DNA of 64,000 nucleotides from an uncultured Gammaproteobacteria bacterium (GCA_964485795.1 CAZAJQ010000005.1:4678-68677); one strand, 5' to 3'; positions 3,985 to 39,217 are shown, counted from the first letter of the stretch. Program-made: numbers and translations. The notes: generated by a model not told the origin, from the sequence alone.

Positions 3985-4045
3985 TGCCAAAGACAGGCAG
4001 GCCTCTGCCCTTCGGGCATCTCCCCTTGTCCAAGGGGAGAACTCA
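3985..4045. repeat. Copy of the dispersed GC-rich palindromic repeat family (CTCCCCTTGTCCAAGGGGAG core)
   Basis: cctgccaaagacaggcagg, gcccttcgggc and ctccccttgtccaaggggag hairpins. The same CCCCTTGTCCAAGGG core and GCCCGAAGGGC module recur at 15760-15800. Confidence 0.55.
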
Positions 4046-4079
4046 AATGGTATGGGTTTCCATCAACACAGTCTTCAAA

Positions 4080-5402
4080 CTAGTTTGCCGGTGCGGGAAT
4101 CAATCCCCCGCGCTCGGGCGCCACACCTTTTTCAAAAAAGCCGGTGCAAAGCTGAAAGCCGCTTGCGCGGTCGATGCCTAACAAAGTAATCTTGTTTTTA
4201 TCCGCGCTAAACTTGATCTTTGCGAGATTATTCGTGGGCGACTCGATATCCCCGGGAAATAAGGCCACATGTGTGGCTTGGTAACTTGGAAATCCGCCCC
4301 TGAAAACGACAATGCCATTTTCAGGATTGGTTTCGGGAAGCAAAGTCAGCCGCACTTCTTCGGTATCGATGGCGCTTTCCAAAATAGCCTCCTCAAAACC
4401 GCAAGAAAACCCACCGTACGAAATTTTTTTTGATTCAACCTTTCTCGGCTCGACGGCGGGAGCATTAACCGGCTTGGTGTCCTTTTTCAGACCGGTTACC
4501 ACATCGTCTTCATTGTTGTCTTCCGGTTCATCATCATTGTCGGCGGACTCGACAAAAGCTTCATGAAACAGGGCATCCGAATTTTTTTGCGATACGGCCG
4601 CATCGATCTCAATCATAAGCTTTATTTCAAAGCTTTCCTGAGGATTCAAAATATCGACACCGCAAATCGGAAGGCCAAAAAAAACCGTCGAACAATAACC
4701 CAATGTCGTAGAGACGGATTTCACCCCGGCTCCCAACGGGAGATAATCCGTGATGATCACGTCGCTTGCCACTCCGAGTCCGAGATTGGTCACTTTTATG
4801 GTATACATGAGCGTATCTCCGAGCTGTACCGTATCTTTGTCGGCCGTCATCTCCAGCGAGAGATCGGCGATTTTCGAAGGAGGAGGAATTGGCAAGGGTT
4901 GCTTTTTCTGCACCGGCACATTCGCTTGTTTAGTGTCGTCTTTTTGCAAACCCGTGATGAGGTCGGCTCGATTGTTCTCTTTGGGATCCTTGTCATTGCC
5001 GCTTGAGGCGACACGCGCGGTATTCACCAGGGTTGTCGCAGCTTCTTCCACCGTAACCGTCAGCAGGACGGAAACGCTTTGATCGGGTGATAAGCTCTCA
5101 AAATCGCATATCGGAACCCCCACGATGGTGATGCATTCTCCCCCGGCGGCGGAAAGGGACTTTACGGTCACGCCAAACGGGAGATTATCCGTCACCGTTA
5201 CATTCTTTGCGGTTTCGGGACCTCTATTCGTAACCGTCATCGTATATGTCAGGGTATCCCCGGCTTTCACACGGTCTTTATCGGCCGTCTTTTTGATCTC
5301 CAAATCCGCGACACCGGCATTATCGGGAGTTTTTTTATAGAGAAAAAAAATTCCGGTCGCAAGAATAGCGATGGAAATTCCTAAATAGATGAATTTTTTC
5401 AT
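4080..5402 (-). CDS. Secreted DUF11 (conserved repeat domain) protein with two DUF11 repeats
   Basis: Signal-like N-terminus MKKFIYLGISIAILATGIFFLY. Two repeats of the TLTYTMTVTNRGPETAKNVTVTDNLP / TLMYTIKVTNLGLGVASDVIITDYLP type with a conserved Cys pair (DUF11 hallmark). The ORF track extends the start to 5450; I trimmed it to the Met preceding the signal peptide. Confidence 0.7.
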   Translation of the reverse strand: MKKFIYLGISIAILATGIFFLYKKTPDNAGVADLEIKKTADKDRVKAGDTLTYTMTVTNRGPETAKNVTVTDNLPFGVTVKSLSAAGGECITIVGVPICDFESLSPDQSVSVLLTVTVEEAATTLVNTARVASSGNDKDPKENNRADLITGLQKDDTKQANVPVQKKQPLPIPPPSKIADLSLEMTADKDTVQLGDTLMYTIKVTNLGLGVASDVIITDYLPLGAGVKSVSTTLGYCSTVFFGLPICGVDILNPQESFEIKLMIEIDAAVSQKNSDALFHEAFVESADNDDEPEDNNEDDVVTGLKKDTKPVNAPAVEPRKVESKKISYGGFSCGFEEAILESAIDTEEVRLTLLPETNPENGIVVFRGGFPSYQATHVALFPGDIESPTNNLAKIKFSADKNKITLLGIDRASGFQLCTGFFEKGVAPERGGLIPAPAN

Positions 5403-5634
5403 ATCGAATTTTTCCATAGTATGGTACTCAAACCTAATATTCAACCTCACTTTTTCTCTTCGTATTTCGTTGCTTTAAACATGGAAAAAAATGAAGCTGC
5501 ACTGTTAAGTCAATTATTCATAAGGCATCAAGAAATAAAAGGATAATTTTTTTAAAAAAAAATGACTCACCGAGCGGATTGATTTTTCACCACTCTCACT
5601 CATTTTCGGTGAAAACATTGAAAAATTCCTGACA

Positions 5635-7386
5635 TCACCTGCCATGCAACCATTTCTCAAAATCTTTCGCGTTTTGGGTATTGATAATATCTTTTTTCTC
5701 CGCCCAACCGCGTCGAGCCTGCCCCACTCCCATCTCCAGCTGATCCATCTGCGCTACGGCATGACTGTCGGAACAAAGAATCATTGAGACGCCGATTTCC
5801 TTTGCCATTCGTATCAGCGTGTCATGGAGATCAAGTCGTTCTGGTGATGCGTTGATCTCGATCGCCTTGTTTTTCATTTTCGCAAAAGTGAAGACTTGTT
5901 TCCAATCGCACTCGATGGGTTCGCGCGAAAAAATTTTTCGCGCCGTCGGATGTCCAAGTATACGGACATGAGGATTTCTCAATGCCACGATCAGTCGCTT
6001 CGTATTTGCTCTACCGGTCATGCGAAAACTCGAATGCACCGCGGCGACGATACCGTCAAATCGAGCCATTTTTTCATCCGACACTTTCAATTTCCCATCT
6101 TTTTCGATATCCACTTCGCCACCGGCAAAAACTTGTATCTTTTCATTGGAGCATGATTTCACCGCATGAAGATACGAGGTGATTCGACTTTCTTTCACCG
6201 CATCGGCAATCGCCGGACCGAGGATATGATCGGTGATCATGATATATTCATACCCGAGCAAAATCGCTTTTCTGGTCATTTCTTCCGGAGTATTCATGCC
6301 GTCCGAAAAAGTGGTATGAAGCTGACAATCTCCTTTCACGTCTTTCAATGTCAAAAGCGCTGGAAGCACTCCTTGCAAACTCGCTTCGATCTCACCGGTA
6401 TCCGTACGCAGCTCGGGGTCCATCCATCGCATGCCCAAAGCCTCGTAAACGGATTTTTCATCACTCCCCGCGATGCGTTTTTTCCCTTTCCAAAGGCCGT
6501 ATTCATTGAGCTTCATGCCTTTTTTATGTGCGATAGTACGGAGATGGACATTGTGTCGCTTATCTCCCGTGAAATACAACAACGCCGAACCGTACTGCTC
6601 GTCCGGAATCACGAGCATGTCGGCATCAATGCCGATTTTCAAACGCACCGAAGCGCGGGTGGGACCAAAAGACATCACTTCTTTCACTTCCGGCAAATGG
6701 GTAAAAACGTTCAAAAAAGATTCCTGATCTTTTGACGAAGCGATCAAATCCATATCGCCGACCGTTTCCTGAAATCTCCGGAGCGACCCGGCCATATCGA
6801 TCCTTTTGACCCCTGCAATCGCACGTAACCTTGCGATAATTCTTCGCGCCAATGGCATGACCTCTCCCAGAAGCATACGTCCCTTCGAAGCCAAGTAAAG
6901 CTCTATCGCATGACGAATCTTGGCTTCCGACCTGTTTCCGAAGTGTCTCAAGGTCGCGATTTTGTGTCGTTGCACGACCTTTTGAAGGTCGGAAAGATTT
7001 CTGACATGAAGCTCATCATAGAGCTTTCGAACGGTTTTTGGACCGATGCCTTCGATGGCGAGAAGTTCTTCGAGCTTTACCGGACACTTTTTTTTCAACG
7101 CTTCATCGAGGGAAATCTTTCCGGTTTCGATATACTCGGCAATCTTGTCCGCAATGCCGCTCCCGATGGTCGGCAAATCCGCGAGAGCCTTTTTTCCGCC
7201 TTCATGGTAAAGCTTGGCCATGTCTTCCGCCGTATTTTCAAGATATTGCGCCACCCGACGATACGCACGAGGTTTGAAAGCGATGTCGTCGAATTCGAGA
7301 TAATCGGCGATCCCTGAAAAAATCTTTGCAAGTTCAAAATTTTTCATGTTACGCGCATACTCTGAAAAGAGATATTCTCCCGCCAT
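5635..7386 (-). CDS. polX: DNA polymerase X family protein (Pol-beta-like nucleotidyltransferase plus C-terminal PHP phosphoesterase domain)
   Basis: 583 aa. HhH motifs (IEGIGPKTVRKLY), the Pol-beta palm GSLRRFQETVGDMDL, and a PHP domain with H/D metal ligands (LQLHTTFSDG ... ITDH ... HPT...). Confidence 0.85.
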   Translation of the reverse strand: MAGEYLFSEYARNMKNFELAKIFSGIADYLEFDDIAFKPRAYRRVAQYLENTAEDMAKLYHEGGKKALADLPTIGSGIADKIAEYIETGKISLDEALKKKCPVKLEELLAIEGIGPKTVRKLYDELHVRNLSDLQKVVQRHKIATLRHFGNRSEAKIRHAIELYLASKGRMLLGEVMPLARRIIARLRAIAGVKRIDMAGSLRRFQETVGDMDLIASSKDQESFLNVFTHLPEVKEVMSFGPTRASVRLKIGIDADMLVIPDEQYGSALLYFTGDKRHNVHLRTIAHKKGMKLNEYGLWKGKKRIAGSDEKSVYEALGMRWMDPELRTDTGEIEASLQGVLPALLTLKDVKGDCQLHTTFSDGMNTPEEMTRKAILLGYEYIMITDHILGPAIADAVKESRITSYLHAVKSCSNEKIQVFAGGEVDIEKDGKLKVSDEKMARFDGIVAAVHSSFRMTGRANTKRLIVALRNPHVRILGHPTARKIFSREPIECDWKQVFTFAKMKNKAIEINASPERLDLHDTLIRMAKEIGVSMILCSDSHAVAQMDQLEMGVGQARRGWAEKKDIINTQNAKDFEKWLHGR

Positions 7387-7486
7387 TCCTTATTTTATTC
7401 TATCTCTTTCCGGTGAACGTATCTACCCCCACGCTTCAAAGGAAGATGGCTTTTGAAAAACTCATGGAGTTTTCAACATCATTCTC

Positions 7487-7656
7487 TTGACGCGATCATC
7501 TGTCGTGTTTATAGTGAATGAACATTTATGTTAAAAAATTTCCAGCAGTCATTTTGGTTTATTCTTATGCACCTGCCTCAAGCTGGAATCGGTTTGCGCT
7601 AAATCATAGCATCAAAGTATCAAAAACCGTCCTTCCAGCAAAGGGCGGTTTTTTGT
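7487..7656 (+). ncRNA. Candidate small RNA or cis-regulatory leader: sigma70-like promoter followed about 135 nt later by an intrinsic terminator
   Basis: TTGACG(7487-7492)-N17-TATAGT(7510-7515). Hairpin aaaaccgtcc..ggcggtttttt at 7623-7655 followed by a T-run. The hypothetical gene 7805..8872 lies downstream on the same strand. Confidence 0.3.
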
Positions 7657-7804
7657 GTCATGGGGGGTATACACGCAACGTGAAAGAAAGCCGATGCCTC
7701 GCACTCAAACGTTTCAAAAAAGATTGATCCATGGGAGCCGGACATGAGCTTTCAAGAGTCAGAAAGCCGTTCTTTTCATCATTCAATCACAGGAGGTTTA
7801 TCAC

Positions 7805-8872
7805 ATGAATCTATCGCTTCACATGAATGGGACAGCCGTCGTCACTGCTCCCCTCGGTGATATCGTAGTACACGATATCAAATCGTCACTCGGTCATTTT
7901 TGTACGTTGCCAAATTTCGTGACCCGGTATCCCGAAGTGGTCATCAAGGCGCTCGAAAAAATTTACCTGGAATACAACGGCGCTTTTTCCCCGCTTGTGG
8001 AAAGGAATCGCGAATGGGAAAACGATTACCGATACTGCATATACGGCGGAAAATTCGAAAATGTCGCGGTTCAGATCGATATGGTCGGTCTGACCGACGC
8101 CATGCTCGAAACGCTCTCCCGCTTATCCATGGAAGAAGTTATTTCACTGCTCAAAAATTCGATCTTTGAAATCGAAAACTCTCTGGCAATGTACCAGCTT
8201 CTCGAAAAGCAATTTCGAAGAGATGTAGAAAAGTCTTTTTTCAGCCTTCGATTTCGCACAGTTCTCAATCACCTGAGACAAACACATCGGATGCCCATCG
8301 CATTGCTGGCCGTCACACGATCAAAATACGAAGGAATGTTGACTTCGGAGTTTGGCAAAAAGCCCGATGAGGAGATCACCGATGCCGAAGTCTTTGAACT
8401 TTCCGGGTTTGACGCCTTTTTCTCTCCGGAACGATTCGCTCGATACATCCGTGAAAACGGAAATCGATGCGAATACTTGCTCTATGCGAGAACGTCGGAT
8501 CCCATAAACAAGCTCAAAGATTCCACCCGAAAAAACGAGTACTCGTTGCTCGAAGACGCAACGCTCCGCGAAATCATAAAACGGCATGCGATCACCTGCA
8601 ACATTGATGCACCGGACATGGATTACCGGAAAAAAATCAATGATACCAAAGAATATCTTCATCCCATGAATATGGCTTATGAAATCAAAGGCATGAAAGA
8701 TATCATGTCCGAACATTTTCTCAATGTTCTCGAAAAACGCAGAAACAACCGAGGGAGAATCGATCCCGATGAAAATCTTTTCGGAAATTTCTATCCGGAA
8801 GACTTGAAAAAGTTTCTGCTGGCGCGGGGAATCAACCAAAATGCCATCGATGCGGGCAAAGTCACTCTCTGA
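7805..8872 (+). CDS. Hypothetical protein (355 aa), no recognisable family
   Basis: Long ORF with a good SD (caggaggtttatcacATG). Codon usage matches neighbouring genes. The antisense ORF 8321..8911 is judged spurious. Confidence 0.6.
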   Translation: MNLSLHMNGTAVVTAPLGDIVVHDIKSSLGHFCTLPNFVTRYPEVVIKALEKIYLEYNGAFSPLVERNREWENDYRYCIYGGKFENVAVQIDMVGLTDAMLETLSRLSMEEVISLLKNSIFEIENSLAMYQLLEKQFRRDVEKSFFSLRFRTVLNHLRQTHRMPIALLAVTRSKYEGMLTSEFGKKPDEEITDAEVFELSGFDAFFSPERFARYIRENGNRCEYLLYARTSDPINKLKDSTRKNEYSLLEDATLREIIKRHAITCNIDAPDMDYRKKINDTKEYLHPMNMAYEIKGMKDIMSEHFLNVLEKRRNNRGRIDPDENLFGNFYPEDLKKFLLARGINQNAIDAGKVTL

Positions 8873-9149
8873 TGCAAACCCGCCAAAGGGACCTACGGAT
8901 GCTATGGACATGTTTCCGGAACGATTGCGGATAAAAATTTTCGTAGCGATCTAAAAAAAGAAATCCATCGACGCGGACACTATGTCGTCCAGCCCGAAAT
9001 TCCCGCATCCGTCATTTCCAATGAAACGACCGGAGAAACATACACCTTCATTGATCGAATTTTCTTCGGTATCATCGAAGGGAATCCTCTCTTCCTCGGC
9101 GGTATGAGAAATCTCATGCCGCAAGAGAGCATTGAAAATAAAAAAGGAA

Positions 9150-9181
9150 GGATACACGGCAACTCAAAAGCCGTGTATGCC
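9150..9181 (+). other. Imperfect hairpin in the intergenic region (ggatacacggc-N9-gccgtgtatgcc)
   Basis: About 10-bp inverted repeat seen directly in the sequence. Confidence 0.3.
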
Positions 9182-9233
9182 GAAATCGTGTGCTGAATCG
9201 TTTTATCATGAGTTCTTTCTTTCTATCGGGCCA

Positions 9234-9264
9234 GCGTTTATACTCTATATGCTAGTATAAACGC
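9234..9264 (+). promoter_or_regulatory. Perfect 10-bp inverted repeat abutting the start codon of the M20 peptidase gene
   Basis: gcgtttatac-tctatatgcta-gtataaacgc, immediately followed by the ATG at 9265. Candidate operator or translation-masking hairpin. Confidence 0.4.
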
Positions 9265-10353
9265 ATGGCCTCTTTTTTTATGAATACCGACATACTTTCG
9301 CTTTCGAAACAATTCATATCCATCCGATCCACGGCCGCAAATCCCAAAGAACGCGAACAAATATTGACACTGGCTTTATCGCATCTTACCGGATATACCG
9401 CTGAAACGTTTGAACGCAACGGCGTCAAAAGCGCTTTGATTTATAATTTTACCAAAAGGCCGAAAAAATTCAGATTGCTTCTCAACGGTCATCTGGACGT
9501 GATCCCGGCGAAAGAACATCAATTTACTCCAAAAATCGAAAACGACAGGCTTTATGGAGCCGGCTCCATGGACATGAAGGCCAATGCCGCATGCTTGATC
9601 GAAGCTTTTGCCATGACTGCGCATCAAGTTTCTTACCCACTTGCGCTTCAGCTCGTCACCGATGAAGAAATTGGCGGGTTTGACGGAACCAAATATCAGG
9701 TGGAGCAAGGCGTTTCCGCGGACTTTGTGATCGCCGGAGAACCGACGAATTTTGACATCGTGCACATGGCCAAGGGTATTTTACAGCTCAAAATTTCCGC
9801 AGCCGGAAAAACGGCTCATGGAGCTTACCCGTGGAGAGGAGAAAATGCGGTTTGGAAAATGAAAAAAGTTTTGGACATATTGCAAAAAAAATTTCCCATT
9901 CCAAAAAAAGAAGTCTGGGAAACGACTTTAAACTTGAGCAGCATCGAGTCGTCAAACAGAACGTTCAATAAAATCCCGGACGACTGCACGGTTTGGCTTG
10001 ACGTACGATTTGTACCCGAAGACGCAAAACATATTCTCAAAGATATCAAATCGTTGCTTCCAGAGGGATTCAGCGTTTTCGTGAACACCGATGAAGCGGC
10101 GCTCATGACCCCAAAAGACACCCCTGATATCCAGACTCTCAAAAAAATCACCGAGCGAATATTCGGCGACGCCATCAAACTCCGCGGTGCGAACGGCTCT
10201 TCGGACGCGCGCCACTATTCGAAGGTGGGCTGCCGCGGCATCGAATTCGGCCCCATCGGAGGAGGTATAGGCAGCGATGAGGAATGGGTGGACATACCCA
10301 GCCTGGAAACGTATTGTAAAATTCTGAAAGAATTCGTAATGACCATGAAATGA
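9265..10353 (+). CDS. M20 family metallopeptidase (ArgE/DapE-like deacylase)
   Basis: 362 aa. LLNGHLDVIPA, GAGSMDMKANAA, DEEIGG and GEPTN motifs (metal-binding His/Asp/Glu of the M20 family). Confidence 0.8.
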   Translation: MASFFMNTDILSLSKQFISIRSTAANPKEREQILTLALSHLTGYTAETFERNGVKSALIYNFTKRPKKFRLLLNGHLDVIPAKEHQFTPKIENDRLYGAGSMDMKANAACLIEAFAMTAHQVSYPLALQLVTDEEIGGFDGTKYQVEQGVSADFVIAGEPTNFDIVHMAKGILQLKISAAGKTAHGAYPWRGENAVWKMKKVLDILQKKFPIPKKEVWETTLNLSSIESSNRTFNKIPDDCTVWLDVRFVPEDAKHILKDIKSLLPEGFSVFVNTDEAALMTPKDTPDIQTLKKITERIFGDAIKLRGANGSSDARHYSKVGCRGIEFGPIGGGIGSDEEWVDIPSLETYCKILKEFVMTMK

Positions 10354-10440
10354 CACGACGTTGACGGCACCCTCGTCAACGGAATGAACACCCAGGTTCA
10401 TCCCTCCCGTTCATACACCCCTGTTAAACATGATCATTCC
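10325..10440. repeat. Dispersed repeat copy overlapping the 3' end of the M20 gene; paralogous to 12815-12925
   Basis: tgaaagaattcgtaatgacCatgaaatgacacga at 10325 matches 12815 (G instead of C) over 34 bp. It is followed by related hairpins (cgttgacgg..cgtcaacg, ccctcccgttcat...ctgttaaac). Confidence 0.6.
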
Positions 10441-10444
10441 GTTC

Positions 10445-10741
10445 TTATTTGCTTGATCCGCAAAATGTATTGTGAAGCCAGGCAACCAACCAGGTGCCGA
10501 TATAGGTATAAATGACCGCTTGCAATAGGCCGGCGATAAAACCGCCGAAAGTTATCGCGACATCGCCGGCAAATTTCTCCACATTGACCAAATGAATGAG
10601 CCAGCCGAGCAGTTGAAGCGAAAAATCCGGCCACAGTGTGACGATGACTGCGCAGAGCACATACAGTCCGCCCATTACGCCGCCTGCCGCCAAAGCAAAT
10701 CCATTTTTATTGATCTGACAATAGTGCTTTTCGTTGTTCAT
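10445..10741 (-). CDS. Small integral membrane protein (98 aa, about 3 TM), hypothetical
   Basis: Hydrophobic segments GVMGGLYVLCAVIVTLW, ITFGGFIAGLLQAVIYTYIGTWLVAWL. Last gene of a five-gene minus-strand operon. Confidence 0.55.
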   Translation of the reverse strand: MNNEKHYCQINKNGFALAAGGVMGGLYVLCAVIVTLWPDFSLQLLGWLIHLVNVEKFAGDVAITFGGFIAGLLQAVIYTYIGTWLVAWLHNTFCGSSK

Positions 10742-10778
10742 AGATTTATTGTTTTGTTGGTTATTCTGTTTTCAACCG

Positions 10779-10991
10779 TTACTTCAGACGGAACATCAAC
10801 TGCAATATGGTCCCAGCGACAATCATAAAAATGCCTGCTATCGTTAGCGTCCGCTCTTTCTTCATTGTCCGAAGCACGTCCGCATCTATTTTACGTTCTT
10901 TAAAAACATGCATGTGCACCATAAACACAGCAAAACCGATCGCTATCTCTCCCATGGTATTCAATAGAAAACCTATCGTGAACAGATTCAT
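10779..10991 (-). CDS. Small membrane protein (70 aa, 2 TM), hypothetical
   Basis: IGFLLNTMGEIAIGFAVFMV and LTIAGIFMIVAGTILQLMF. Tightly packed between neighbouring operon genes. Confidence 0.5.
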   Translation of the reverse strand: MNLFTIGFLLNTMGEIAIGFAVFMVHMHVFKERKIDADVLRTMKKERTLTIAGIFMIVAGTILQLMFRLK

Positions 10992-10994
10992 GTT

Positions 10995-11252
10995 CTATTT
11001 TTTTAATTCGTCAAATTTCTTTTTGAATTGATCTTCGGTTGCTCCGCCGAACGCAAAAAACTCATCATTCACAAGAATTCCGGGACTTGAGAGGATATCG
11101 TATTTTTGCACCAATGCTTGGCCTTCAGGGGTAATCATGTCAATTTCTTCAATCGCAAGCTCCGGATAATCTTTTTTCATTTTCTCAAGAGTGGCTTTCA
11201 CCGCTATGCAATGCTGACAACCGGGGGGATGGATAAGGGTTACTTTAATCAT
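10995..11252 (-). CDS. Thioredoxin-fold redox-active disulfide protein (Thioredoxin_3 / TIGR00412-like)
   Basis: 85 aa. CxxC motif PGCQHC near the N-terminus, and a cis-Pro-like SSPGILV motif. This family typically pairs with permease or CcdA genes. Confidence 0.7.
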   Translation of the reverse strand: MIKVTLIHPPGCQHCIAVKATLEKMKKDYPELAIEEIDMITPEGQALVQKYDILSSPGILVNDEFFAFGGATEDQFKKKFDELKK

Positions 11253-11260
11253 AAATTTGG

Positions 11261-11473
11261 TTATTGATTGCTTCTTATACTTTGCTTATTCGCATTCGAC
11301 CTCGCGCGAATCGCTCGTGCAATGATACCTGCGCCGACAATGACGATAATGGCTACGAAGGGGCCAATCCAATCAGCTTCGGCAAGATTGGATACCTCCG
11401 TTTCCTCTTCGTGGGCAAACACCTGCGGCGCCGAGGAAAGCAAGAGTGCAAGAGCGGTAAGAAGTATTTTCAT
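11261..11473 (-). CDS. Small exported, membrane-anchored protein (signal peptide, acidic HEEETE segment, C-terminal TM)
   Basis: MKILLTALALLLSSAPQVFA signal; TM PFVAIIVIVGAGIIARAI. The start 11473 abuts the stop of the upstream CcdA-like gene (translational coupling). The ORF track start at 11554 is rejected as an overlap. Confidence 0.5.
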   Translation of the reverse strand: MKILLTALALLLSSAPQVFAHEEETEVSNLAEADWIGPFVAIIVIVGAGIIARAIRARSNANKQSIRSNQ

Positions 11474-12438
11474 AGATTTGTCGTTTCTGCTTTTTGTTTG
11501 CGAAAAGCATCCCAGAGGATAATGGCACCAATAATTCCGGCGAAGACAAGCCACGGGACGATTCCGCCGGTTCCCTGCGGGAGATTGAGCGATGATTCAA
11601 TGACCGCGGACTCGGCAATTTTGGGAAATGTTATTTCCAAAAATCTGTTCCAGCCCTGATGAACAATTGAATCTTCAAACCACGCCATTCCGAAAAATCC
11701 ATAATTGAAGATAAAAGCACCAAGCCCGACTAAAGCCCAAGCAACCAGGCCTTTCACTTTGTCTTGATATGCGGAGAGCTTATTCATCGCGTTCACGCCT
11801 AATAGAGCAAGAACAACAAGAAAAAAAAGAGGAACGATTCGTCCGAGACCATGAAGCGCGCCAAGCGACGCGCCGACAGTCGGGATGCCGAGAGTCGCTA
11901 CATATCCAAAGAGAATATAGAAAGCGGGGTTGGGGCAGCCTACGCCGGCATTGCCGAGAAAAAATCCCAAGAAAAAACTGCGTATATAATCGTTTTTATC
12001 CTGCAGAAAAGTCGGAAGAATAGTCTGCTTGAAGGGCAATTTGAATTTGATCAGATTGAGCTCTGAAATACCGAATGTCAGTGCCGCAACACCACCAAGA
12101 ATAAGCATCCAGCTGATAACCCGATAGAGCTCCACGAATCCTCCAAGCCAGCCAAGAGCCATCCCGTAGAGAGCGAAAGTTACGGTAAGCCCTGCGCCGA
12201 AAAGAAACGCCATCATTAGTCCCTTGCCGATTTTCTTTGAGAGCGCGAGCGGCACGATGACAAATACCAAGGGGAAAGTGCACGGCAAAAAAATCATGGA
12301 AAGGCCCGCGAGGAACGACAAAGAGTATCCGGGGATGAATTCCGGAGATGTCCACAAGCTAAAAAACCCGATAATGATTATTGAAAAGAGGATGAAGGCG
12401 GCGGATACCAGCCAGATTTTAAGGGTTTTTGAATTCAT
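11470..12438 (-). CDS. CcdA/DsbD-family transmembrane thiol-disulfide electron transfer protein (cytochrome c biogenesis protein transmembrane region-like)
   Basis: 322 aa, polytopic. Conserved Cys within TM segments (FLPCTFPL, GVGCPNP). First gene of the operon with the thioredoxin-like protein. Confidence 0.6.
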   Translation of the reverse strand: MNSKTLKIWLVSAAFILFSIIIIGFFSLWTSPEFIPGYSLSFLAGLSMIFLPCTFPLVFVIVPLALSKKIGKGLMMAFLFGAGLTVTFALYGMALGWLGGFVELYRVISWMLILGGVAALTFGISELNLIKFKLPFKQTILPTFLQDKNDYIRSFFLGFFLGNAGVGCPNPAFYILFGYVATLGIPTVGASLGALHGLGRIVPLFFLVVLALLGVNAMNKLSAYQDKVKGLVAWALVGLGAFIFNYGFFGMAWFEDSIVHQGWNRFLEITFPKIAESAVIESSLNLPQGTGGIVPWLVFAGIIGAIILWDAFRKQKAETTNL

Positions 12439-12814
12439 AACTTTTCACAAAGTTTTATCCTCTATCTTTTTGCAAAACGCATGAATATGGATATTCCATC
12501 GCGTATCATTGCCAAGGATAAAAAAATATTTCATGGGATTCGTGAACAAATCACTTCATCATATGAATGGTAATTCATATATGCTGCTATGGCAAATAAC
12601 GGATTGTCCGCATTCATGACAAAGGACTTCCCATACTCAAATTCAACCGCTCAATTGGGAAATATCCTCGATGAATGATAAGACAACGATTTTTATTGCC
12701 TCTGAACGATGTGGGAACATCGTAAAGAATTCACCGCATCGTCAATCATGTTTTTGTTAAATAAAATGATAATGGCAGCAGAAGCGTCATTTGCAGGACT
12801 GGCGTAAGACCAAC

Positions 12815-12960
12815 TTGAAAGAATTCGTAATGACGATGAAATGACACGAAAAAGGAGGGGTATCCCCCCCCCTCCCGATTCATCCTCCTGTTTAACGCCC
12901 CCCTGTCATCCTGAGCCTGTCGAAGGATGACAGGACTCGTCAGTACCCCCCTCCTTCGAA
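12815..12960. repeat. Dispersed repeat copy (PEPVEG/VILSLSKD-type hairpin element) next to tRNA-Gly
   Basis: A 34-bp near-identical match to 10325-10358. Perfect 10-bp IR cctgtcatcc-N13-ggatgacagg. Outer IR aaggagggg ... cccctcctt. The core GTCATCCTGAGCCTGTCGAAGGATGAC is related to 39137-39163. Confidence 0.6.
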
Positions 12961-12982
12961 TAGGTAAATGAACGGATTTTCG

Positions 12983-13055
<73 letters not shown>

Positions 13056-13275
13056 CATGAAATGAGATTCACTCACGAACCTAGCCATTCCGAGGACGTA
13101 AGAATATTGTAAAGGTATTTCTTATTTTGTCAAAGAATGGCCGTTTTTTTTGACTCTGTGAGTCTTTCATGTTACATTCAATGGCACATGAAAAATTGCA
13201 GAAAGCCGCAAAAGTTTTTTTATTTTATAAATATTTTTTTTCGAATTCTTCATTGAATTCATATCCATCCCCACC

Positions 13276-15240: not shown

Positions 15241-15249
15241 TAAGCCGCT

Positions 15250-15594
15250 ATGCTGAAAACAACCGAGCAAATCAATGCGTATCTCCAAAAAACGCTGGCC
15301 GAAATCATCCAAAAATGGGTGGATATCCCCGATGAAACGCTCTTCACCATCACGAGAGTGCAAACCAGCCCGGATCATAAGCATGCGAAAATTTTTTTTA
15401 CTGTATTTCCTGAAATCAGGGAAAATACGGTATTTGATATTCTGAAAAAAAACATTTATTCGCTGCAGAAGCAGATAAATCAAAACTTCGCGTCAAAAAA
15501 AGCTCCCCAGATCTTTTTCACTCCCGATCTTCACGTGAAAACCGCGTACGCCATCGACACAATTTTGGATTCGCATTCTTCCGAGCAATCGTGA
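15250..15594 (+). CDS. rbfA: Ribosome-binding factor A
   Basis: 114 aa. It sits directly downstream of infB, the canonical operon order. KH-like fold signature in TITRVQTSPDHKHAKIFF. Confidence 0.8.
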   Translation: MLKTTEQINAYLQKTLAEIIQKWVDIPDETLFTITRVQTSPDHKHAKIFFTVFPEIRENTVFDILKKNIYSLQKQINQNFASKKAPQIFFTPDLHVKTAYAIDTILDSHSSEQS

Positions 15595-15636
15595 GATTTT
15601 ACAAAATGGTTTGAGCGACTTCGATGTCGCCTGTTT

Positions 15637-30200: not shown

Positions 30201-33200
30201 TCCGGGATATGAAGGATCATCAATAAAATCGTATGTACGATCAATGATATCCGCCGTAGCGACTGAATGTCCGGCGGCACCATGACTCCCATACGTATCG
30301 GCCGCCAAACTGCATTTCAAATCGCTCAACGATGGATTAAATCGAGTAGCTCCGGGACAGCCTAACCCATTCGCATCAATAAACTCTCCAGAGTCTACCG
30401 TTAAATCATTCACGACCGTCAAATCCAATTTGTTCGTCTGTGTAGCCGTGCTTGCGAAATGCGATAATTTCGAAAACCCCCCGCTCGATACCACATGTAC
30501 AGTCTTAAACGTTATCGCCGAAGGAAGTTTAATAATCCCAAAATTGATATTCAAATCAACGAGATTCGAATTTAACGCGCTAAACATCGATGGCGTATAC
30601 GTCGCATATGCGTTACCATTCCCCGTATGCATATCCATGGTGTACGTACTCGCTGTCGTGTTTCTCACCAGGACGCTGCCTCCACCTCCGCCGGGATTCA
30701 TATTCGCATAAGCAGTTCGTAACCCGGTATGTGTAATGGTTGCCGCCTCAATGTATAAACGACCGGCTCCGCCGGTTCCCGATGCAGCCGTTCTGACTGT
30801 AATTTCACCAGCCCCACTCAATGTTCCGGAAACGATAAGTTTGATACTTCCTCCCGCCCCGGATCCGCTACCGGTACCTGCTCGTATCGTTCCGCTCGCC
30901 ACGATGTTCGCTGCAGTAATTTTTATTACACCATCACCCGCGGACGTTGCTGAGCCGGATCCGGGATATTGCGGATCATCTATATAATCATAAATTCTAC
31001 TTAAAGCATTCGCTTCCGTGATACTCACCCCAACTCCTCCATGACTCCCTTCACTGTCCGCAGCCAAACTACACTTATTATCACCTCCCGCCGATGAAGG
31101 ATTGAATCGAGTCGTAGAAGGACAGCCGAGCCCATTCGCATCAATAAATTCTCCAGAGTCTACCGTTAAATCATTCACGACCGTCAAATCCAATTTGTTC
31201 GTCTGTGTAGCCGTGCTTGCGAAATGCGATAATTTCGAAAACCCCCCGCTCGATACCACATGTACAGTCTTAAACGTTATCGCCGAAGGAAGTTTAATAA
31301 TCCCAAAATTGATATTCAAATCAACGAGATTCGAATTTAACGCGCTAAACATCGATGGCGTATACGTCGCATATGCGTTACCATTCCCCGTATGCATATC
31401 CATGGTGTACGTACTCGCTGTCGTGTTTCTCACCAGGACGCTGCCTCCACCTCCGCCGGGATTCATATTCGCATAAGCAGTTCGTAACCCGGTATGTGTA
31501 ATGGTTGCCGCCTCAATGTATAAACGACCGGCTCCGCCGGTTCCCGATGCAGCCGTTCTGACTGTAATTTCACCAGCCCCACTCAATGTTCCGGAAACGA
31601 TAAGTTTGATACTTCCTCCCGCCCCGGATCCGCTACCGGTACCTGCTCGTATCGTTCCGCTCGCCACGATGTTCGCTGCAGTAATTTTTATTACACCATC
31701 ACCCGCGGACGTTGCTGAGCCGGATCCGGGATATTGCGGATCATCTATATAATCATAAATTCTACTTAAAGCATTCGCTTCCGTGATACTCACCCCAACT
31801 CCTCCATGACTCCCTTCACTGTCCGCAGCCAAACTACACTTTAAGTCTCCACTATCCGGATTAAATCTTGCACCTATTGGACAGCCTCTCCCATCGCCCG
31901 TAACCGTCCCATTCGTATTCACGGTCAACGTCTGCACCACCGTCAAATCCATCTTCCGAGTCACGGTCGCGGTTGACGGCAAATGCGTCAAACTGTTATT
32001 CGCGCCGCCCGTATCGATCATGGTGACATTTTTGAAAGTAATCGCTCCCTCCAGATTCACATGTCCAAAAGAAATCGACAAGTTCACCGTATTGGGATTG
32101 ATGGTTGCAAACATCGAGGACTTGATGAGGAGTGACCCAACAGCCAACCCACTATGATAGGTGATGCTATTCGTATCACTCGTCGTATTGCGAAGAAAAA
32201 CAGTACCTCCGCCAGTGCCGATCTTCGCCGCGCCGGCTGACCATGAAAAAGCATTCAACGTTGTCAACGAATTATCCGTTGTTCCTTGTATAAAAATTCT
32301 TCCTCCTCCTCCGGTTCCCGTGTCGGTTCTCGCTTCAACCGTGCCTGTTCCGGTGAATGATCCGGTAGCAACTAATTTAATCGCACCGCCGGCAGCATTT
32401 CCGCTCCCTCGATTCGCACGGATCGTGCCATTCACAACCATGTTTCCGCCCGCGGAAATTCTGATAACCCCGCCGCCGGCCGTTGCGTCAGACGCGCCCG
32501 ATCCAGGGTACAAAGGATTATCAATGAAATCATAAACTCGATCCTCGATGTCGGCGATTCCGACATCATTCCCTGCACCCCCGTGACTGCCTTGAGCATC
32601 GGCTAATTCGCTGCAAATAAAAGTTGTTTTATTGAATCTCTTTGAGGCTGGGCAACCCTTACCATTCGCATCAATGAATGTTCCCGCGTTCACCGTCAAA
32701 TTCCCTGTCAAAACGATGTCCATCTTTTTATACGTCGTGCTCGAATCCGAAATCGTGTGCGTCAAAATCGCCGCGTTCTGCAATGTCAAACTCGCAAACC
32801 CGTTCGCACCGGTAAAATCTCCCGTCATGTTTACCGTAATTCCGTCAATCACTATGTCGTCACCGGCAAATGTTCCCGGCGTGACCGTGCATTCTACGGC
32901 CGCGCAATTCGCCGTTTTCCAAGCGGCGTCGAGCGTCTGAATCGCGGCTATATGAAAATCTCGTTTCTTCTCTCCACTTTCTTCGAAAAACGATACATGC
33001 TCTCCTTCGTTCAAGAGATTTTCAAATATACCCATCACTTTCCCTTGCAAACCTTCTCTTTCCAGCGGTAAATATGTTTCACCGAAAAACGCCGCCGCTT
33101 CAAAAACGCTTCTTGAAGCATCCATACGACTCAAAACAAAAAAACCTCCCACCATGATGCATCCAAGGGTGAAGGTTTTTAGAATTTTTTTGAAATCTCT

Positions 33201-33257
33201 TTTTTTATTTTTACGATTCACCATAATATAAAAAAATATTCCGCGACATCCAGTCAC
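24246..33257 (-). CDS. Giant (3003 aa) multi-domain cell-surface protein. It has an N-terminal TM/signal and five Gly-rich parallel-beta-helix-like modules of about 255-380 aa. It also has four Asp-box (BNR, SxDxGxTW) repeats, two FN3-like domains and a DUF11 domain. Further along are a Pro/Glu-rich linker, an Ig-like domain, and two CarboxypepD_reg/transthyretin-like domains separated by clusters of internal TM helices.
   Basis: Single uninterrupted ORF. Motifs read from the translation: GSHGG.G...YD.IDDP.YPGSGS repeated five times; STDSGVTW / STNGGSTW / STDNGSSW / SLDGGTTF; TVTNxG-type DUF11 segment VIPGDTIVYQIQYKNVGSAKATGVVITNPI; YRLEVQKQGYAGIS and YQLQVKKTGYEPLS beta-sandwich motifs. Hydrophobic stretches appear at roughly residues 2040-2060, 2630-2680 and 2790-2860. 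The alternative start Met is at 33224. Confidence 0.8.
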   Translation of the reverse strand: MTGCRGIFFYIMVNRKNKKRDFKKILKTFTLGCIMVGGFFVLSRMDASRSVFEAAAFFGETYLPLEREGLQGKVMGIFENLLNEGEHVSFFEESGEKKRDFHIAAIQTLDAAWKTANCAAVECTVTPGTFAGDDIVIDGITVNMTGDFTGANGFASLTLQNAAILTHTISDSSTTYKKMDIVLTGNLTVNAGTFIDANGKGCPASKRFNKTTFICSELADAQGSHGGAGNDVGIADIEDRVYDFIDNPLYPGSGASDATAGGGVIRISAGGNMVVNGTIRANRGSGNAAGGAIKLVATGSFTGTGTVEARTDTGTGGGGRIFIQGTTDNSLTTLNAFSWSAGAAKIGTGGGTVFLRNTTSDTNSITYHSGLAVGSLLIKSSMFATINPNTVNLSISFGHVNLEGAITFKNVTMIDTGGANNSLTHLPSTATVTRKMDLTVVQTLTVNTNGTVTGDGRGCPIGARFNPDSGDLKCSLAADSEGSHGGVGVSITEANALSRIYDYIDDPQYPGSGSATSAGDGVIKITAANIVASGTIRAGTGSGSGAGGSIKLIVSGTLSGAGEITVRTAASGTGGAGRLYIEAATITHTGLRTAYANMNPGGGGGSVLVRNTTASTYTMDMHTGNGNAYATYTPSMFSALNSNLVDLNINFGIIKLPSAITFKTVHVVSSGGFSKLSHFASTATQTNKLDLTVVNDLTVDSGEFIDANGLGCPSTTRFNPSSAGGDNKCSLAADSEGSHGGVGVSITEANALSRIYDYIDDPQYPGSGSATSAGDGVIKITAANIVASGTIRAGTGSGSGAGGSIKLIVSGTLSGAGEITVRTAASGTGGAGRLYIEAATITHTGLRTAYANMNPGGGGGSVLVRNTTASTYTMDMHTGNGNAYATYTPSMFSALNSNLVDLNINFGIIKLPSAITFKTVHVVSSGGFSKLSHFASTATQTNKLDLTVVNDLTVDSGEFIDANGLGCPGATRFNPSLSDLKCSLAADTYGSHGAAGHSVATADIIDRTYDFIDDPSYPGSGSAAGAAGGGVIRISAGGNIVVNGTIRANRGSGDAAGGAIKLVATGSFTGTGTVEARTDTGGGGGGRIFIQGTTDNALTTLNAFSWSSGTDKAGTGGGTVLLRNTTTDTNSITYHSGLASGSIMIKSSMFATINPNTVNLAVSFGYVNLEGAITFKNVTINDPGGVGNNALTHLPSTSTVTRKLDLTVVNALTVNTNGLIDVNARGCPTARLNTANGLCDSVADTNGSHGGTGSGASGTRVYDSVENPTLPGSGGTSGNGGGIVNISATNITVSGGIRADGSGNGAGGTVKLLTSSGTITGAGTVTAGGAGNGGGGRVAIIYNAANTALGLTPSNITANGAGGGSAGTAYIDTIGSTLTSTSGTLGTTDITFNHRLFTEDTGFTNSYDITPEFSTDSGVTWTTATDGGGASEGKVGLTATAGTGTAHVFVWDASAQCSGCASALLRMRAKKNPIGDGFQIVLSGTGSGGVYATVTTPSGSQSGTIPISYTLSDVGSASTSINIEYSTNGGSTWSAATSAGGDSCRATSGSSVPCTISQTTTPNGTPSKTFQWASMTDAPNTDNSLIRIRVTPLNGGSVAGETGNFRVDNNNAPVATVTNLTSCGAVNGNITITYSLVDANSDSLSIVAQYSTDNGSSWNTATSGGGDGTSGLASSVAGVSHTFIWASATNLPSTVNSTMKFRITPSDALNGAGTAGTTNTFKLNNNNPASATITTPTSASGSSVVMNYKLIDTVVGTANITPKYSLDGGTTFVSPLTEDTAATSPASQGVTSLSTALTPGADHVYVWNTGVDFTSSQQNLIFAIEPNDGNIGVCGQTSSFNYTKGGSIPVVPSAPSGPVIGVPTPLSGSVIRWNFTDTASNETGFILEDANGNKVLDTLPNATSDLSFLEETGLKANTKYTRRVKSFNVVGSSSASNTATVYTLAEVPKGVQPIQVSDREIEIQVDGVIDVSQAQAAGYTITADVEQITEGDVLKQVQDYRGQTAYFYEAVNTSNGNIQTSGWLQKSFYKFSNLTPNTVYEFRVKTRNGDGLETVYSFKLPVKTQQINPPRMVIALNVGVIPSQQSVVSAQLGQIPEAQAAEEVVDAQLSNARETVKRAKVSGYAFQKEWGKILFIILGMVLCGLLYGVLHSMRILIKNAGLLSGRRKYTWWQKMKLVMKFKKQIVTGNPVEVFESVAKRHKNGTFFSSFGVHRRHHRLVHAWVGIASVVVMAEGILGIMFLKQGTYAQQVYADNGEEVIPGDTIVYQIQYKNVGSAKATGVVITNPISSKVGYVSGSRVQDGQNVGDGGTTAGGASVWTIGNVNVNQIGYVEFKIQLPSNVGTPGILINQASVNYAEGFNTVFSNLVMNPLNPPLDPNNPNARRAGIAVTSKYFGITESGIERSVIPPSQLPISPLPTEPCKENCPPQPEVPSEEAPPTEEVPQERVIETPVGVDIVEAPKPQTVAEVPPEPVSPPSEEAGKKPGSEPGTQPGGEGPVGGYPQGQTTFENGGIGVGELPQDATAEEQALIEEGFSITGSIDAGSEGFTMSGTATPGSEVYVTFGEYGTFRVQSDENGNWKLYVPYDEIAITSEEAQKRKSVAVTAELRKGRLRSERVTLGNASLEGLVRWKEISIPEEQSLVQITAQEAVRILKESALAVKENIQKVEKPSQVALIAIAPVVTLLNPAIAANIPHIWAYLYHFISWLLSVLGIKKKKQPWGVVYDSITKEPVSLAIVRLYSVDTATPNAKPRLISTTVTDGQGRLGFLVKEGRYRLEVQKQGYAGISKLIPAGTRADAGYEDLYLGGALTLGREGVTIRVNIPIDPTDVKEEKLAMSVLGNIWYEMKAAIRKVSGPVLWIGLTGSVLLTYGSFNLTNTVILWLYVMFGLAQKVFSPKALRSWGVVYDAATRMPIALAVINIIDAEYGKLLKSRLTDYEGRYHFLPKAGKYQLQVKKTGYEPLSEAKALRSDHPVYKANQVLDIKKDEAIVNVDVAMKKQSVL
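30395..31924. repeat. Tandem duplication inside the giant gene: two copies with a 765-bp period, about 683 bp 100% identical
   Basis: Plus-strand shadow ORFs 30736..30987 and 31501..31752 are identical in sequence. 30430..30711 matches 31195..31476. Manual comparison shows identity from about 30395-31077 vs 31160-31842. The flanking modules are diverged paralogs. Confidence 0.8.
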
Positions 33258-37647: not shown

Positions 37648-37696
37648 AATTCCTTATTCTGGTTCTATTGCGGAAAAATTCGTAATTTTTTATTTT

Positions 37697-37768
37697 GCCC
37701 CTATCGTCTAGTGGTTAGGACATCAGGTTTTCATCCTGGTAACCGGGGTTCGATTCCCCGTAGGGGTG
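37697..37768 (+). tRNA. tRNA-Glu (anticodon TTC)
   Basis: GCCCCTATCGTCTAGTGGTTAGGACATCAGGTTTTCATCCTGGTAACCGGGGTTCGATTCCCCGTAGGGGTG. Anticodon loop TTTTCAT. D-loop typical of tRNA-Glu. Confidence 0.8.
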
Positions 37769-37810
37769 CAAAAAAATAGCGTAACGCTTCTATCTTCATT
37801 GATTTTCATC

Positions 37811-39217
37811 ATGTCCATTTCTCTTCTCTCCCTCATTGCCATTGTCTTTCTTTTTCTCTTCTTTTTTGTCGCAAAAAAATCAATTTTCTACGGGATTCTC
37901 CTTATCTCCGCCACCATGCCAAGCTATCTTGTGAGGCTTCATATCGGAACGGTTCCCACGACCTGGCTCGAACTTCAAATCATCATCTTGTTTTTTTTGT
38001 GGATTTTTGAAAAAAAAATAACGCCAAAGGAATTCCTTCGCTTCTTCCTATCCTTGGAAATATGGCCGATATTTCTGCTTCTTTTTTTCGCATCTTCGAT
38101 TTCCGTGCTTTCTTCACCAGACGTACCGGCGGCGCTCGGTATATGGAAAGCCTATTTTCTCGAACCGATGATTTTTCTTCTTATTCTCATTCATACGGTG
38201 AGATTCAAACAAATCCGTCATTTCATGTGGCCGTTTTGCTTTACCGTTTTTTTCATAAGCGTCATCGCATGCTATCAAAAATTGACGGCTTGGAATATAC
38301 CGCTTCCCGAATGGCGGGTAGAAGCCACTCGACGCGTTACGTTTTTTTTCGATTCCCCAAACGCCGTGGGACTTTTACTGGCTCCCATGGTCGCATTTAT
38401 TTTCGCCATCTTTGCGTCTGAAATCCGAACGAATCAATCAAAACCCATTTCAAATCCATGGCAGAGCTTCTATCAGCTCCTCATGCTCGCTTCGATGGTC
38501 ATGGGAGCGCTGGCGATATGGTTTGCAAGATCCCGGGCGGCATTGATTGCCGTCGGAATATCGGCTCTTTTCATCGTATACCATGTCTGGCCAAAAAAAA
38601 TCGTCTTTTCGCTGCTTGCACTCATGCTTGGAATCATCGTTGTCATCACTCCGATACGAAGTGCATTTCTGGATCTCGCGACATTTCAAGTGGCATCGGG
38701 TCGACATCGTCTCATGCTCTATGAAAACACTTGGAACATGTTGAAAGACAACGTTTTTTACGGAGCCGGATTGGCCGGATTCCCATTTTTTTATGATCAG
38801 TATCGAAGCCCAAAGCATACCGAAAAGCTCATTTACCCGCACAATTTTTTTCTCAATTTTTGGAGCGAAACGGGCTTGCTTGGGATGCTCTCCATCACCG
38901 CACTTTTGATGTATTTCTTTTTCATAAGCTTTCAAGAAATTCGAAAAAAAAATCCCGTCGCCATCGCATTGACCTCCTCCATGATGGCGATTCTCATTCA
39001 CGGAATGGTGGATGTTCCGTATTTCAAAAACGATCTCGCTATTCTTTTTTGGCTGATCTATGGGCTGGCTTATATCGTTTGGAAAAATGACCATGCTACA
39101 ATGAGCGAATCAGCCACGCTCCCTCCTCCCCTTGTCACCCTGAGCCTGCCGAAGGGTGTCGAAGGGTCATTTTTTCAAACCAATGCGCATCCTTGCCATC
39201 GAAACATCCTGCGATGA
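37811..39217 (+). CDS. O-antigen ligase (Wzy_C/WaaL) family membrane protein. The C-terminal 30 codons are read through a dispersed repeat element.
   Basis: Polytopic. Wzy_C-like motif YPHNFFLNFWSETGLLGML. The start was moved to the ATG at 37811 because the track ORF start overlaps tRNA-Glu. The tail ...ATLPPPLVTLSLPKGVEGSFF is encoded by repeat 39115-39170. Confidence 0.65.
   Translation: MSISLLSLIAIVFLFLFFFVAKKSIFYGILLISATMPSYLVRLHIGTVPTTWLELQIIILFFLWIFEKKITPKEFLRFFLSLEIWPIFLLLFFASSISVLSSPDVPAALGIWKAYFLEPMIFLLILIHTVRFKQIRHFMWPFCFTVFFISVIACYQKLTAWNIPLPEWRVEATRRVTFFFDSPNAVGLLLAPMVAFIFAIFASEIRTNQSKPISNPWQSFYQLLMLASMVMGALAIWFARSRAALIAVGISALFIVYHVWPKKIVFSLLALMLGIIVVITPIRSAFLDLATFQVASGRHRLMLYENTWNMLKDNVFYGAGLAGFPFFYDQYRSPKHTEKLIYPHNFFLNFWSETGLLGMLSITALLMYFFFISFQEIRKKNPVAIALTSSMMAILIHGMVDVPYFKNDLAILFWLIYGLAYIVWKNDHATMSESATLPPPLVTLSLPKGVEGSFFQTNAHPCHRNILR
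39115..39170. repeat. Dispersed repeat copy (GTCACCCTGAGCCTGCCGAAGGGTG core) spanning the O-antigen ligase 3' end and the tsaD 5' region
   Basis: ccccttgtcaccctgagcctgccgaagggtgtcgaagggtca. Related to 12899-12930 (gtcatcctgagcctgtcgaaggatgac). Confidence 0.55.

Follow-up and report, generated by a model that had tools for sequence, protein, structure and literature searches.

GC-rich palindromic sequences recur in intergenic DNA and at gene ends in a 64,000-nucleotide (nt) stretch deposited under an uncultured Gammaproteobacteria bacterium (GCA_964485795.1, CAZAJQ010000005.1:4678-68677; hereafter the window, with positions counted from its first letter). This raises the question of whether the palindromes belong to one repeat family, as an initial annotation had proposed, and what kind of element they represent. 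We found that the window contains two pairs of shared hairpin modules and one unrelated direct repeat. The explanation that we consider probable is that four loci, namely element 1 (3983-4040), element 3 (12850-12960), element 4 (15677-15826) and element 5 (39129-39166, plus strand), are small non-coding GC-rich stem-loop elements of the repetitive extragenic palindromic (REP) or bacterial interspersed mosaic element (BIME) type, each a mosaic of a few hairpin modules, which were inserted non-autonomously and spread in trans. The best non-self match of the IF-2 protein was 58% identical, and the named matches were Patescibacteria (Uhrbacteria, Buchananbacteria, Falkowbacteria and others); the genome is that of a candidate phyla radiation (CPR; Patescibacteria) bacterium.

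The evidence for shared modules came from word counts compared with shuffles of the 64-kb window. Module A (CCCCTTGTCCAAGGGG) occurred exactly at 4022 and with one mismatch at 15763 (0.32 expected), and the core of module B (CCTGAGCCTGYCGAAGG) was present at 12910 and 39139, both on the plus strand (0.16 expected). Module C (GCCCTTCGGGC) was found at 4007 (+) and 15783 (-), with a shuffle expectation of 0.98 and 12 of 100 shuffles equal to it; by itself it is at chance level, and it counts only within the inverted A/C pair, which extends over 38 nt (4002-4039 and 15761-15798, 87% in inverted orientation). Apart from module C alone, the module sharing is beyond chance. Modules A and C are common to 3983-4040 and 15677-15826, and module B, which reads TGTCAYCC-TGAG-CCTGY-CGAA-GGRTG, is common to 12902-12934 and 39129-39166. 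The two sets of modules came together only in degenerate form, as a CGTC-AT hairpin at 15732-15759 and as CCCCTTGTC fused to module B at 39129. No third copy of any module was found in the 64-kb window, degenerate searches included. The strings quoted in the initial annotation were all found where it had placed them, but the single family of at least five copies that it had assembled from them was not supported, because no module occurs more than twice; in addition, a 34-bp block that it had included is unrelated, and 10359-10440 contained ordinary hairpins and no A, B or C module.

A chance resemblance among unrelated low-complexity GC-rich terminator hairpins, with no repeat family at all, would be consistent with the behavior of module C alone, with the two copies of each module in the window and with the fold of element 5, which is no better than that of shuffles. 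However, words of 16-17 nt expected just 0.16-0.32 times in the window occurred twice, the 38-nt pair was 87% complementary, and the modules recurred with their flanks and with compensatory stems in hundreds of contigs from other genomes, where matched control words gave 2-5 matches. We consider chance resemblance extremely improbable. The elements are also no assembly artefacts, because independent Logan assemblies from three runs reproduced 4028-11920, 13010-16302 and 37732-40804 at 99.96-100% identity; these segments take in elements 4 and 5, part of element 1 and a thiol-redox cassette described below. Element 4 was identical in one Logan contig and element 5 in two. We also observed that independent Logan contigs of the same population begin at 4028, exactly within hairpin A, and at 13010, which lies 50 nt rightward of element 3; the palindromes may interrupt de Bruijn assembly or have further copies in the community.

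Outside the window, the 20-mer of module A was found at 27 loci in GTDB genomes, compared with about 2 expected by chance under a uniform-composition estimate; the scan covered representative genomes, and the source metagenome-assembled genome (MAG) is not among them. Binataceae and 'Deltaproteobacteria' MAGs held two or three loci each, and the other hosts included Verrucomicrobia, a cyanobacterium, Azospirillum and a Candidatus Moraniibacteriota MAG. Most of these copies shared the flanks ccct-...-gagggtNagggagaggt, and at three of the loci an inserted GC hairpin separated gaggt from gggagaggt, an architecture shared with 15757-15806 in element 4. In the Moraniibacteriota contig, an inverted A dimer was located beside a TGTCATTCCGGA...TCCGGAATGACA palindrome of the TGTCAT type. 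Additionally, 15760-15801 (modules A and C) was 88% identical over 42 nt to the ureB-ureC intergenic stretch of a Deinococcus aquaticus plasmid (E 2e-5), and the head/tail pairing of the A+C composite was kept in that stretch. Deinococcus has mosaic small non-coding repeats (SNR/SRE), and the A+C composite with its G-rich tail resembled this D. aquaticus stretch as a single such match.

Module B is best described from its hairpin in element 3 (12902-12934, plus strand), which reads CC-TGTC-AT-CC-TGAG-CCTGT-CGAA-GG-AT-GACA-GG. This hairpin had ten Watson-Crick pairs followed by U-A, G.A, A.G and G-C and a 5-nt loop, and the arms ATCCTGAG and CGAAGGAT (12908-12915 and 12921-12928) formed eight positions, of which six were Watson-Crick and two were G.A. 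The 17-mer of module B matched more than 120 viral contigs among the matches listed, compared with 5 loci for the control in the same collection, a 16-mer of module A. Two 17-mers in which UGAG/CGAA was repaired to full Watson-Crick pairing gave 2 and 3 viral loci, which is chance level, and the 27-mer had 5 loci when its G.A pairs were kept, compared with 0 and 0 in the two repaired versions. Pairing continued next to the core. The first flanking pair in the viral set was C-G in 58 cases, T-A in 34, T-G in 22 and C-A in 3, with 94 Watson-Crick pairs compared with 55 in shuffles; the second flanking position was still above shuffles, and there was no general pairing further out.

The same picture was obtained from metagenomes and plasmids. 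The pattern GTCATCC-TGAG-N5-CGAA-GGATGAC was present in at least 120 metagenome contigs with GC contents of 0.30-0.74, and the loops of the 124 copies listed were mainly CTTGT (23), CGCAG (22), CCTGT (19), CGAAG (19) and CGTAG (7). The pair beside the pattern was T/A in 61 of 120 copies, the GTC/GAC pairs being fixed by the search pattern itself, and a locus-specific stem extension of at least four pairs was found in 22 of 120 copies, compared with 4.5 in controls. In PLSDB, module B was found in Sphingobium, Novosphingobium, Methylobacterium, Rhizobium, Microvirga, Nitratireductor, Comamonas, Gloeothece PCC 7822 and Hymenobacter, that is, in plasmids of Alpha- and Betaproteobacteria, Cyanobacteria and Bacteroidota. 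Nearly all of these plasmid copies lay in intergenic DNA without annotation, and the number per replicon was uneven (15 places in one Comamonas replicon and 6 in Gloeothece PCC 7822). The Hymenobacter copy, CGTC-AT-GC-TGAG-CCTGT-CGAA-GC-AT-GACG, was located between two co-directional genes, and Comamonas carried CC...GG and GG...CC versions within larger mosaics. The GC/GC stem of Hymenobacter and the GG/CC stem of Comamonas are compensatory changes around a constant core. Taken with the copies of module A, these modules occur in phage contigs and in at least five further phyla, and compensatory changes preserve their pairing. A search of a phage collection with module B gave a single weak coding match only, and Rfam gave nothing at eight loci from other genomes with module A or B.

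Larger assemblies of module B were observed in some of these contigs. The Comamonas endophytica plasmid (L154), whose 15 B places are neither annotated nor matched in Rfam, contained big intergenic mosaics of B-type units in both orientations (GGTTCGACAAGCTCACCACGAACGG and CCGTTCGTCCTGAGCCTGTCGAAGGATGAACG) at 11230-11350 and 19800-20110. Tandem B arrays were present in contigs L075, L091 and L270; in the viral contig L075, gcgc-CCTGAGCCTGTCGAAGG was repeated with a period of 21 nt, and the metagenome contig L270 held four B copies with the loop CTCGT. On inspection, the UGAG...CGAA core was not a hammerhead, as C3-A6 (CUGA) was missing and stem II would have just 1 bp, and it was not a lambda boxB, the loop of which is different.

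The conservation of this core also suggests a different explanation, in which module B acts as a structured RNA or single-stranded DNA motif with a function, as the A composite perhaps does too. A conserved cellular or phage factor would recognize the hairpin through the tandem G.A core and the restricted loop, and copies would be kept by selection rather than as selfish insertions. The strongest point for it is that the non-canonical core was kept and that its repaired versions were at chance level. The 22 fixed bases of module B were unchanged across contigs of 30-74% GC, the loops were restricted to a few classes, the asymmetry of the closing pair (T-G 22 compared with C-A 3) fits pairing on one strand, and module B was often downstream of genes. 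In contrast, the orientation of module B relative to flanking genes showed no clear bias, a result that does not favor a strictly RNA-level role, and further out in the 27-mer set pairs of the A-C type (83) outnumbered those of the G-U type (64). The copy number of module B per genome was very uneven, and Di Nocera et al. (PMC3733652) use such unevenness against a general function. There was no match to an Rfam family, the tandem arrays and mosaic dimers resemble repeat expansion, and the partner protein is only hypothetical. We regard this explanation as a minority possibility. The more specific proposal that (C/T)GTC-AY-CC-UGAG-N5-CGAA-GG-RT is one deeply conserved structural motif instead of a loose group of selfish palindromes, recognized by a conserved host or phage enzyme such as a nuclease, a recombinase or an RNA-binding protein, is similarly doubtful.

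The four elements of the window showed related architectures in different settings. Element 1 consisted of three adjoining hairpins at 3983-4001, 4006-4018 (module C) and 4019-4040 (module A), the last of which is CTCCCCTT-GTCC-AAGGGGAG, and its fold had z values of -3.7 on the plus strand and -3.0 on the minus strand. It was located 40 nt 3' of the stop of a DUF11-domain gene (4080..5450, minus strand), and a hairpin with a T-run (3926-3962) lay beyond it from that gene. In element 3, outer inverted arms (AAGGAGGGGTA and TACCCCCCTCCTT) surrounded a C-rich stretch and the module-B hairpin, and the fold had a z of about -3.2 on both strands. This element occupied the 3' trailer of tRNA-Gly(GCC) (12982-13056, minus strand), 22 nt past its 3' end. 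At its left edge, a terminator scan gave a terminator-like G/C hairpin (12847-12877, minus strand) of 14 pairs followed by TTTTT, which likely ends the tRNA-Gly transcript, and a promoter-like site (13133-13106, minus strand; 11/12 match) was located upstream of the tRNA. An Rfam search of 12780-12985 at E<=10 returned noise only. The initial annotation had placed two copies beside tRNA genes; only 12850-12960 has such a position, and about 1.4 kb separates each of the copies at 3985 and 39115 from the tRNA closest to it.

Two open reading frames (ORFs) are explained by these elements. The ORF 3786..4181 (plus strand) translates the repeat of element 1 (...GHLPLSKGRT...), and 12746..13072 (minus strand), which overlaps tRNA-Gly, translates that of element 3 (...VILRQAQDDR...). 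The initial annotation had recognized 'HLPLSKGR' and 'PEPVEG' as translation products of the repeats; these peptides, and ILRQAQDD with them, do come from reading through the repeats in spurious ORFs, and these two ORFs should not be called genes.

Element 4 was a 150-nt composite with terminal inverted arms of 29 nt (15679-15707 and 15796-15824) that were 86% complementary. It also had inner arms (TCACCCCTCCG and CGGAGGGGTGA), and its interior contained the degenerate CGTC-AT hairpin (15732-15759), a module-A hairpin (15757-15784) and a module-C hairpin (15783-15793), and the G-rich tail GGAGGGGTGA paired with TCACCCCTCC upstream. The folds of the two strands had energies of -77.9 and -89.4 kcal/mol and z values of -7.0 and -8.1. 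The element lay between the rbfA terminator (15636-15652 followed by T6) and a promoter-like site (15863-15891) of a DHH/DHHA1 gene.

This architecture could be that of a Correia-like miniature inverted-repeat transposable element (MITE) with 29-nt terminal repeats, moved by an insertion sequence (IS) transposase encoded elsewhere in the genome, the other loci being unrelated hairpins. The length of 150 nt, the complementary arms, the harmless site between a terminator and a promoter-like site and the equally good folding of both strands agree with this; element 4 resembles the Correia/NEMIS elements, which are Neisseria MITEs, in its size of about 150 nt, its terminal inverted repeats of about 26-29 nt and its intergenic position. 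However, its arms had no second copy in the window or in metagenome contigs, its flanks (..aaaacta on the left and ttaaag.. on the right) showed no clear target-site duplication, its interior was composed of modules that are also found in element 1 and in other phyla, and no transposase was present in the window. Compared with Correia elements, it also differed in having arms without further copies where searched, in the absence of a TA duplication and of IHF or promoter evidence, and in the lack of sequence similarity, and the other three loci did not have such terminal inverted repeats. We consider the origin of element 4 as a MITE decidedly unlikely.

Element 5 reads CCCTT-GTCAC-CC-TGAG-CCTGC-CGAA-GG-GTGTC-GAAGGG and is followed by T6 at 39170-39175. 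Its module B stem begins with AC/GT at 39137, so that the first position alone is A-T, and it matched a viral contig (L032) over 31 nt save for one pattern-free loop position, which is C here and T there. Element 5 ends 17 nt before the ATG of tsaD (39183). The ORF of an O-antigen-ligase-like Wzy_C protein (37766..39217) passes in frame through the element and 35 nt into tsaD, with a tail that reads ...PPPLVTLSLPKGVEGS..., in keeping with the proposal of the initial annotation that a repeat is read as the C-terminal tail of the O-antigen ligase near tsaD. This tail had 46 residues beyond the last conserved helix, compared with 1 to about 25 in 12 homologues; because the homologues have shorter tails, element 5 most likely displaced the original Wzy_C stop. 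The NCBI record gives a Wzy_C protein of 468 aa with the same stop. The deposited annotation thus takes in the repeat-derived tail and the tsaD overlap, and about 30 residues at the end of the 468-aa protein, where it overlaps tsaD, are probably a product of read-through.

A different origin was found for the 34-bp direct repeat. Its left copy (10325..10358, plus strand) contains the last nine codons and the stop of an M20 peptidase gene (9265..10353), and its right copy (12816..12849, plus strand), which was identical at 33 of 34 positions, is a duplicated relic of that gene end. The initial annotation had read the left copy as a repeat that supplies the last codons and the stop of this gene. 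However, the Pfam M20 domain aligned as far as residue 359 of the 362 (profile position 205/206), and because the domain reaches this far, the 34-bp block is the native end of the M20 gene, outside the hairpin repeat family. The two copies bracket a 2,457-bp minus-strand cassette (10359-12815) that encodes a DUF5676 protein with two transmembrane segments, a 70-aa transmembrane protein, a thioredoxin-like CxxC protein, a 97-aa protein and a DsbD_TM protein; no recombinase gene was found in it. The alignment past 34 bp was ambiguous, and the arrangement of M20 gene and cassette was unchanged in Logan contigs of two other runs. We infer that this thiol-redox cassette was inserted into the 3' end of the M20 gene with duplication of its target; the 34-bp duplication is an event separate from the hairpin elements.

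To place the elements among known systems, module B can be compared with the CGTC REPs, a super-family described by Di Nocera, De Gregorio & Rocco (2013, BMC Genomics 14:522) that takes in dRS3 of Neisseria and RPE-4/RPE-6 of Rickettsia. According to that article (PMC3733652), CGTC REPs have an unpaired tag (CGTC, TGTC or CCTC), a stem of 8-9 bp that opens with the pairs A-T and T-A, a loop of 4-5 nt of few types and an unpaired 3-nt tail with the consensus CCA. They occur mostly as head-to-head dimers, in tens to thousands per genome, in five phyla and mainly in Alphaproteobacteria, with CGTC-2 in Sphingobium. They often touch gene ends, have intragenic copies and are without a dedicated transposase. 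The same source reads their G-T pairs as a sign of transcription and uses their uneven copy number to argue against a general function; how CGTC REPs arise or move is unsettled in the literature, as that article indicates.

We found that module B was generally similar to these REPs. The tag TGTC was present at 12904-12907 and 39133-39136, and CGTC at 15732-15735; copies from other genomes had CGTC (Hymenobacter), CCTC (Methylobacterium) or TGTC (Gloeothece). Module B also has an A-T stem start, eight stem positions and a 5-nt loop of the CTTGT/CCTGT type (CCTGT and CCTGC in the window), and it is found in several phyla, chiefly in Alphaproteobacteria (Sphingobium), near or over gene ends and with no transposase tied to it. 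Module B differs in that two of its eight stem positions are conserved G.A mismatches, which are not mentioned in the available text of PMC3733652. Furthermore, the B copies of the window are single rather than head-to-head dimers, with two in 64 kb, and none of the CGTC REP peptides in the text and supplements of that article equals VILSLSKD. Module B thus fits the architecture of CGTC/TGTC-tagged REPs, a comparison made by description and not by a published consensus; module A has no CGTC or TGTC tag.

The elements share with the REP/BIME sequences of enterobacteria and Pseudomonas the organization of short imperfect palindromes in mosaics, the intergenic or 3' untranslated position and the spurious peptides, and REP/BIME sequences have been proposed as stabilizers of mRNA 3' ends or as aids to terminators. 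The likeness to REP/BIME elements noted in the initial annotation thus holds for 3983-4040, 12850-12960, 15677-15826 and 39129-39166, which are hairpins at 3' or intergenic sites with modules that recur with pairing kept, but not for the 34-bp block. They differ from GTAG REPs and from REPINs, which are mobilized by RAYT (IS200-like Y1) transposases, as no GTAG was located beside the A or B stems (a CTAC at 15677-15680, beyond the left arm of element 4, was the sole instance), no RAYT was present in the window, there was no sequence similarity and the density was far lower, with 4 loci in 64 kb and 2 per module. Element 5 resembles the Rickettsia RPEs in lying in frame within a real protein ORF, but the parallel is only formal, because element 5 is at the extreme 3' end, where it removes the stop so that the ORF runs into tsaD. 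Rfam at the gathering threshold returned four tRNAs only for the whole window, and literature searches on the exact module strings and peptides, and on REP elements in CPR/Patescibacteria, gave nothing relevant. The elements are of an expected kind and would be unsurprising to a specialist.

Several observations weigh against REP/BIME-type elements that spread in trans. Each module was seen just twice within the 64-kb window, the Logan contigs of three runs were identical and showed no presence/absence polymorphism, and the nearest relative was only 58% identical in IF-2. No transposase, Y1_Tnp/RAYT or integrase was found in the 43 window ORFs scanned, a set that comprises nearly all ORFs of at least 90 aa. 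The tails of module B are GAC (12929-12931) and GTC (39158-39160), not CCA, and in the 12902 copy the TGTC tag is paired with GACA; elsewhere, many viral B copies stop pairing 2 nt outside the core. The fold of element 5 hardly exceeded shuffles (z -0.9), and the 29-nt arms of element 4 had no other copy in the window and 0 matches in 241 million metagenome records. Finally, the orientation of module B relative to flanking ORFs was 16 sense to 14 antisense and 25 to 13, with no clear bias. These orientation counts were obtained with a crude, home-made ORF caller and make a weak test, because many matches lay inside ORFs of GC-rich contigs that are probably spurious.

Despite these points, REP/BIME-type elements remain our preferred explanation, and their history may be outlined as follows. 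Module B combines a (C/T)GTC tag, an A-T stem start, a CC-UGAG...CGAA-GG core in which two G.A pairs are kept and a 5-nt loop (CYTGT). Behind module A, CTCCCCTT-GTCC-AAGGGGAG, there is often a small inserted hairpin (module C) and then the G-rich tail GGAGGGGT, whose pairing partner is a C-rich head upstream. Non-autonomous elements of these types would have entered gene ends and intergenic sites, one of them over the Wzy_C stop codon, which lengthened the ORF. The enzyme that spreads them would act in trans and be encoded outside the window. The elements would be tolerated because of where they lie, namely beyond stop codons, in the trailer of a tRNA or in the gap that separates a terminator from a promoter, and they may persist as harmless or mildly useful hairpins at RNA 3' ends, for example by blocking exonucleases, by aiding pausing or termination or by contributing to the tRNA-Gly trailer. 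Candidate signs of such a 3' role are the T-run that follows element 5 and the left edge of element 3, which is terminator-like.

Other features of the window were also observed. A near-perfect G/C-rich palindrome of 24+24 nt (GAGGGGAAGGGTAGGGGCGGATCG and its complement; z -9.3) was present at 57871-57918, 42 nt upstream of a PAP2-family gene (57167..57829, minus strand). Its arms resemble the A-type G-rich tail, but an 18-mer taken from it gave 0 matches in viral contigs. A GC-rich structured stretch with the hairpin GGCGGGATTGCCCGCC (42532-42603), which has no repeat module, was located directly upstream of tRNA-Gly(TCC) (42611-42685). A single ORF of 3003 aa (24246-33257, minus strand) had a GC content of 0.50-0.55 compared with about 0.45, internal 765-bp repeats with 96% identity (30331-30630 and 31096-31395) and weak matches to fn3, DUF11 and CarboxypepD_reg; it probably encodes a giant surface protein. 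Genes for DNA repair and replication were dense at 5635-7386, 22377-24224 and 44913-52384 (PolX-PHP, MutL, MutS, RuvB, PolA, TopA, DprA and an HhH-GPD glycosylase), and they carried no repeat insertion, unlike the REP-carrying repair genes reported by Di Nocera et al. (PMC3733652).

These results extend mosaic palindromes of the REP type to the candidate phyla radiation, where none had been reported in the literature searched. They also document a non-Watson-Crick core that at least one type of hairpin retains from phylum to phylum, which sharpens the old question of how CGTC REPs arise and spread without a dedicated transposase. Should the less likely view of module B as a recognized structural motif prove true, recognition would be what keeps it identical across Proteobacteria, Cyanobacteria, Bacteroidota, CPR bacteria and phage contigs at 30-74% GC, and CPR bacteria, with their streamlined genomes of about 1 Mb, would offer a minimal system for finding its partner.

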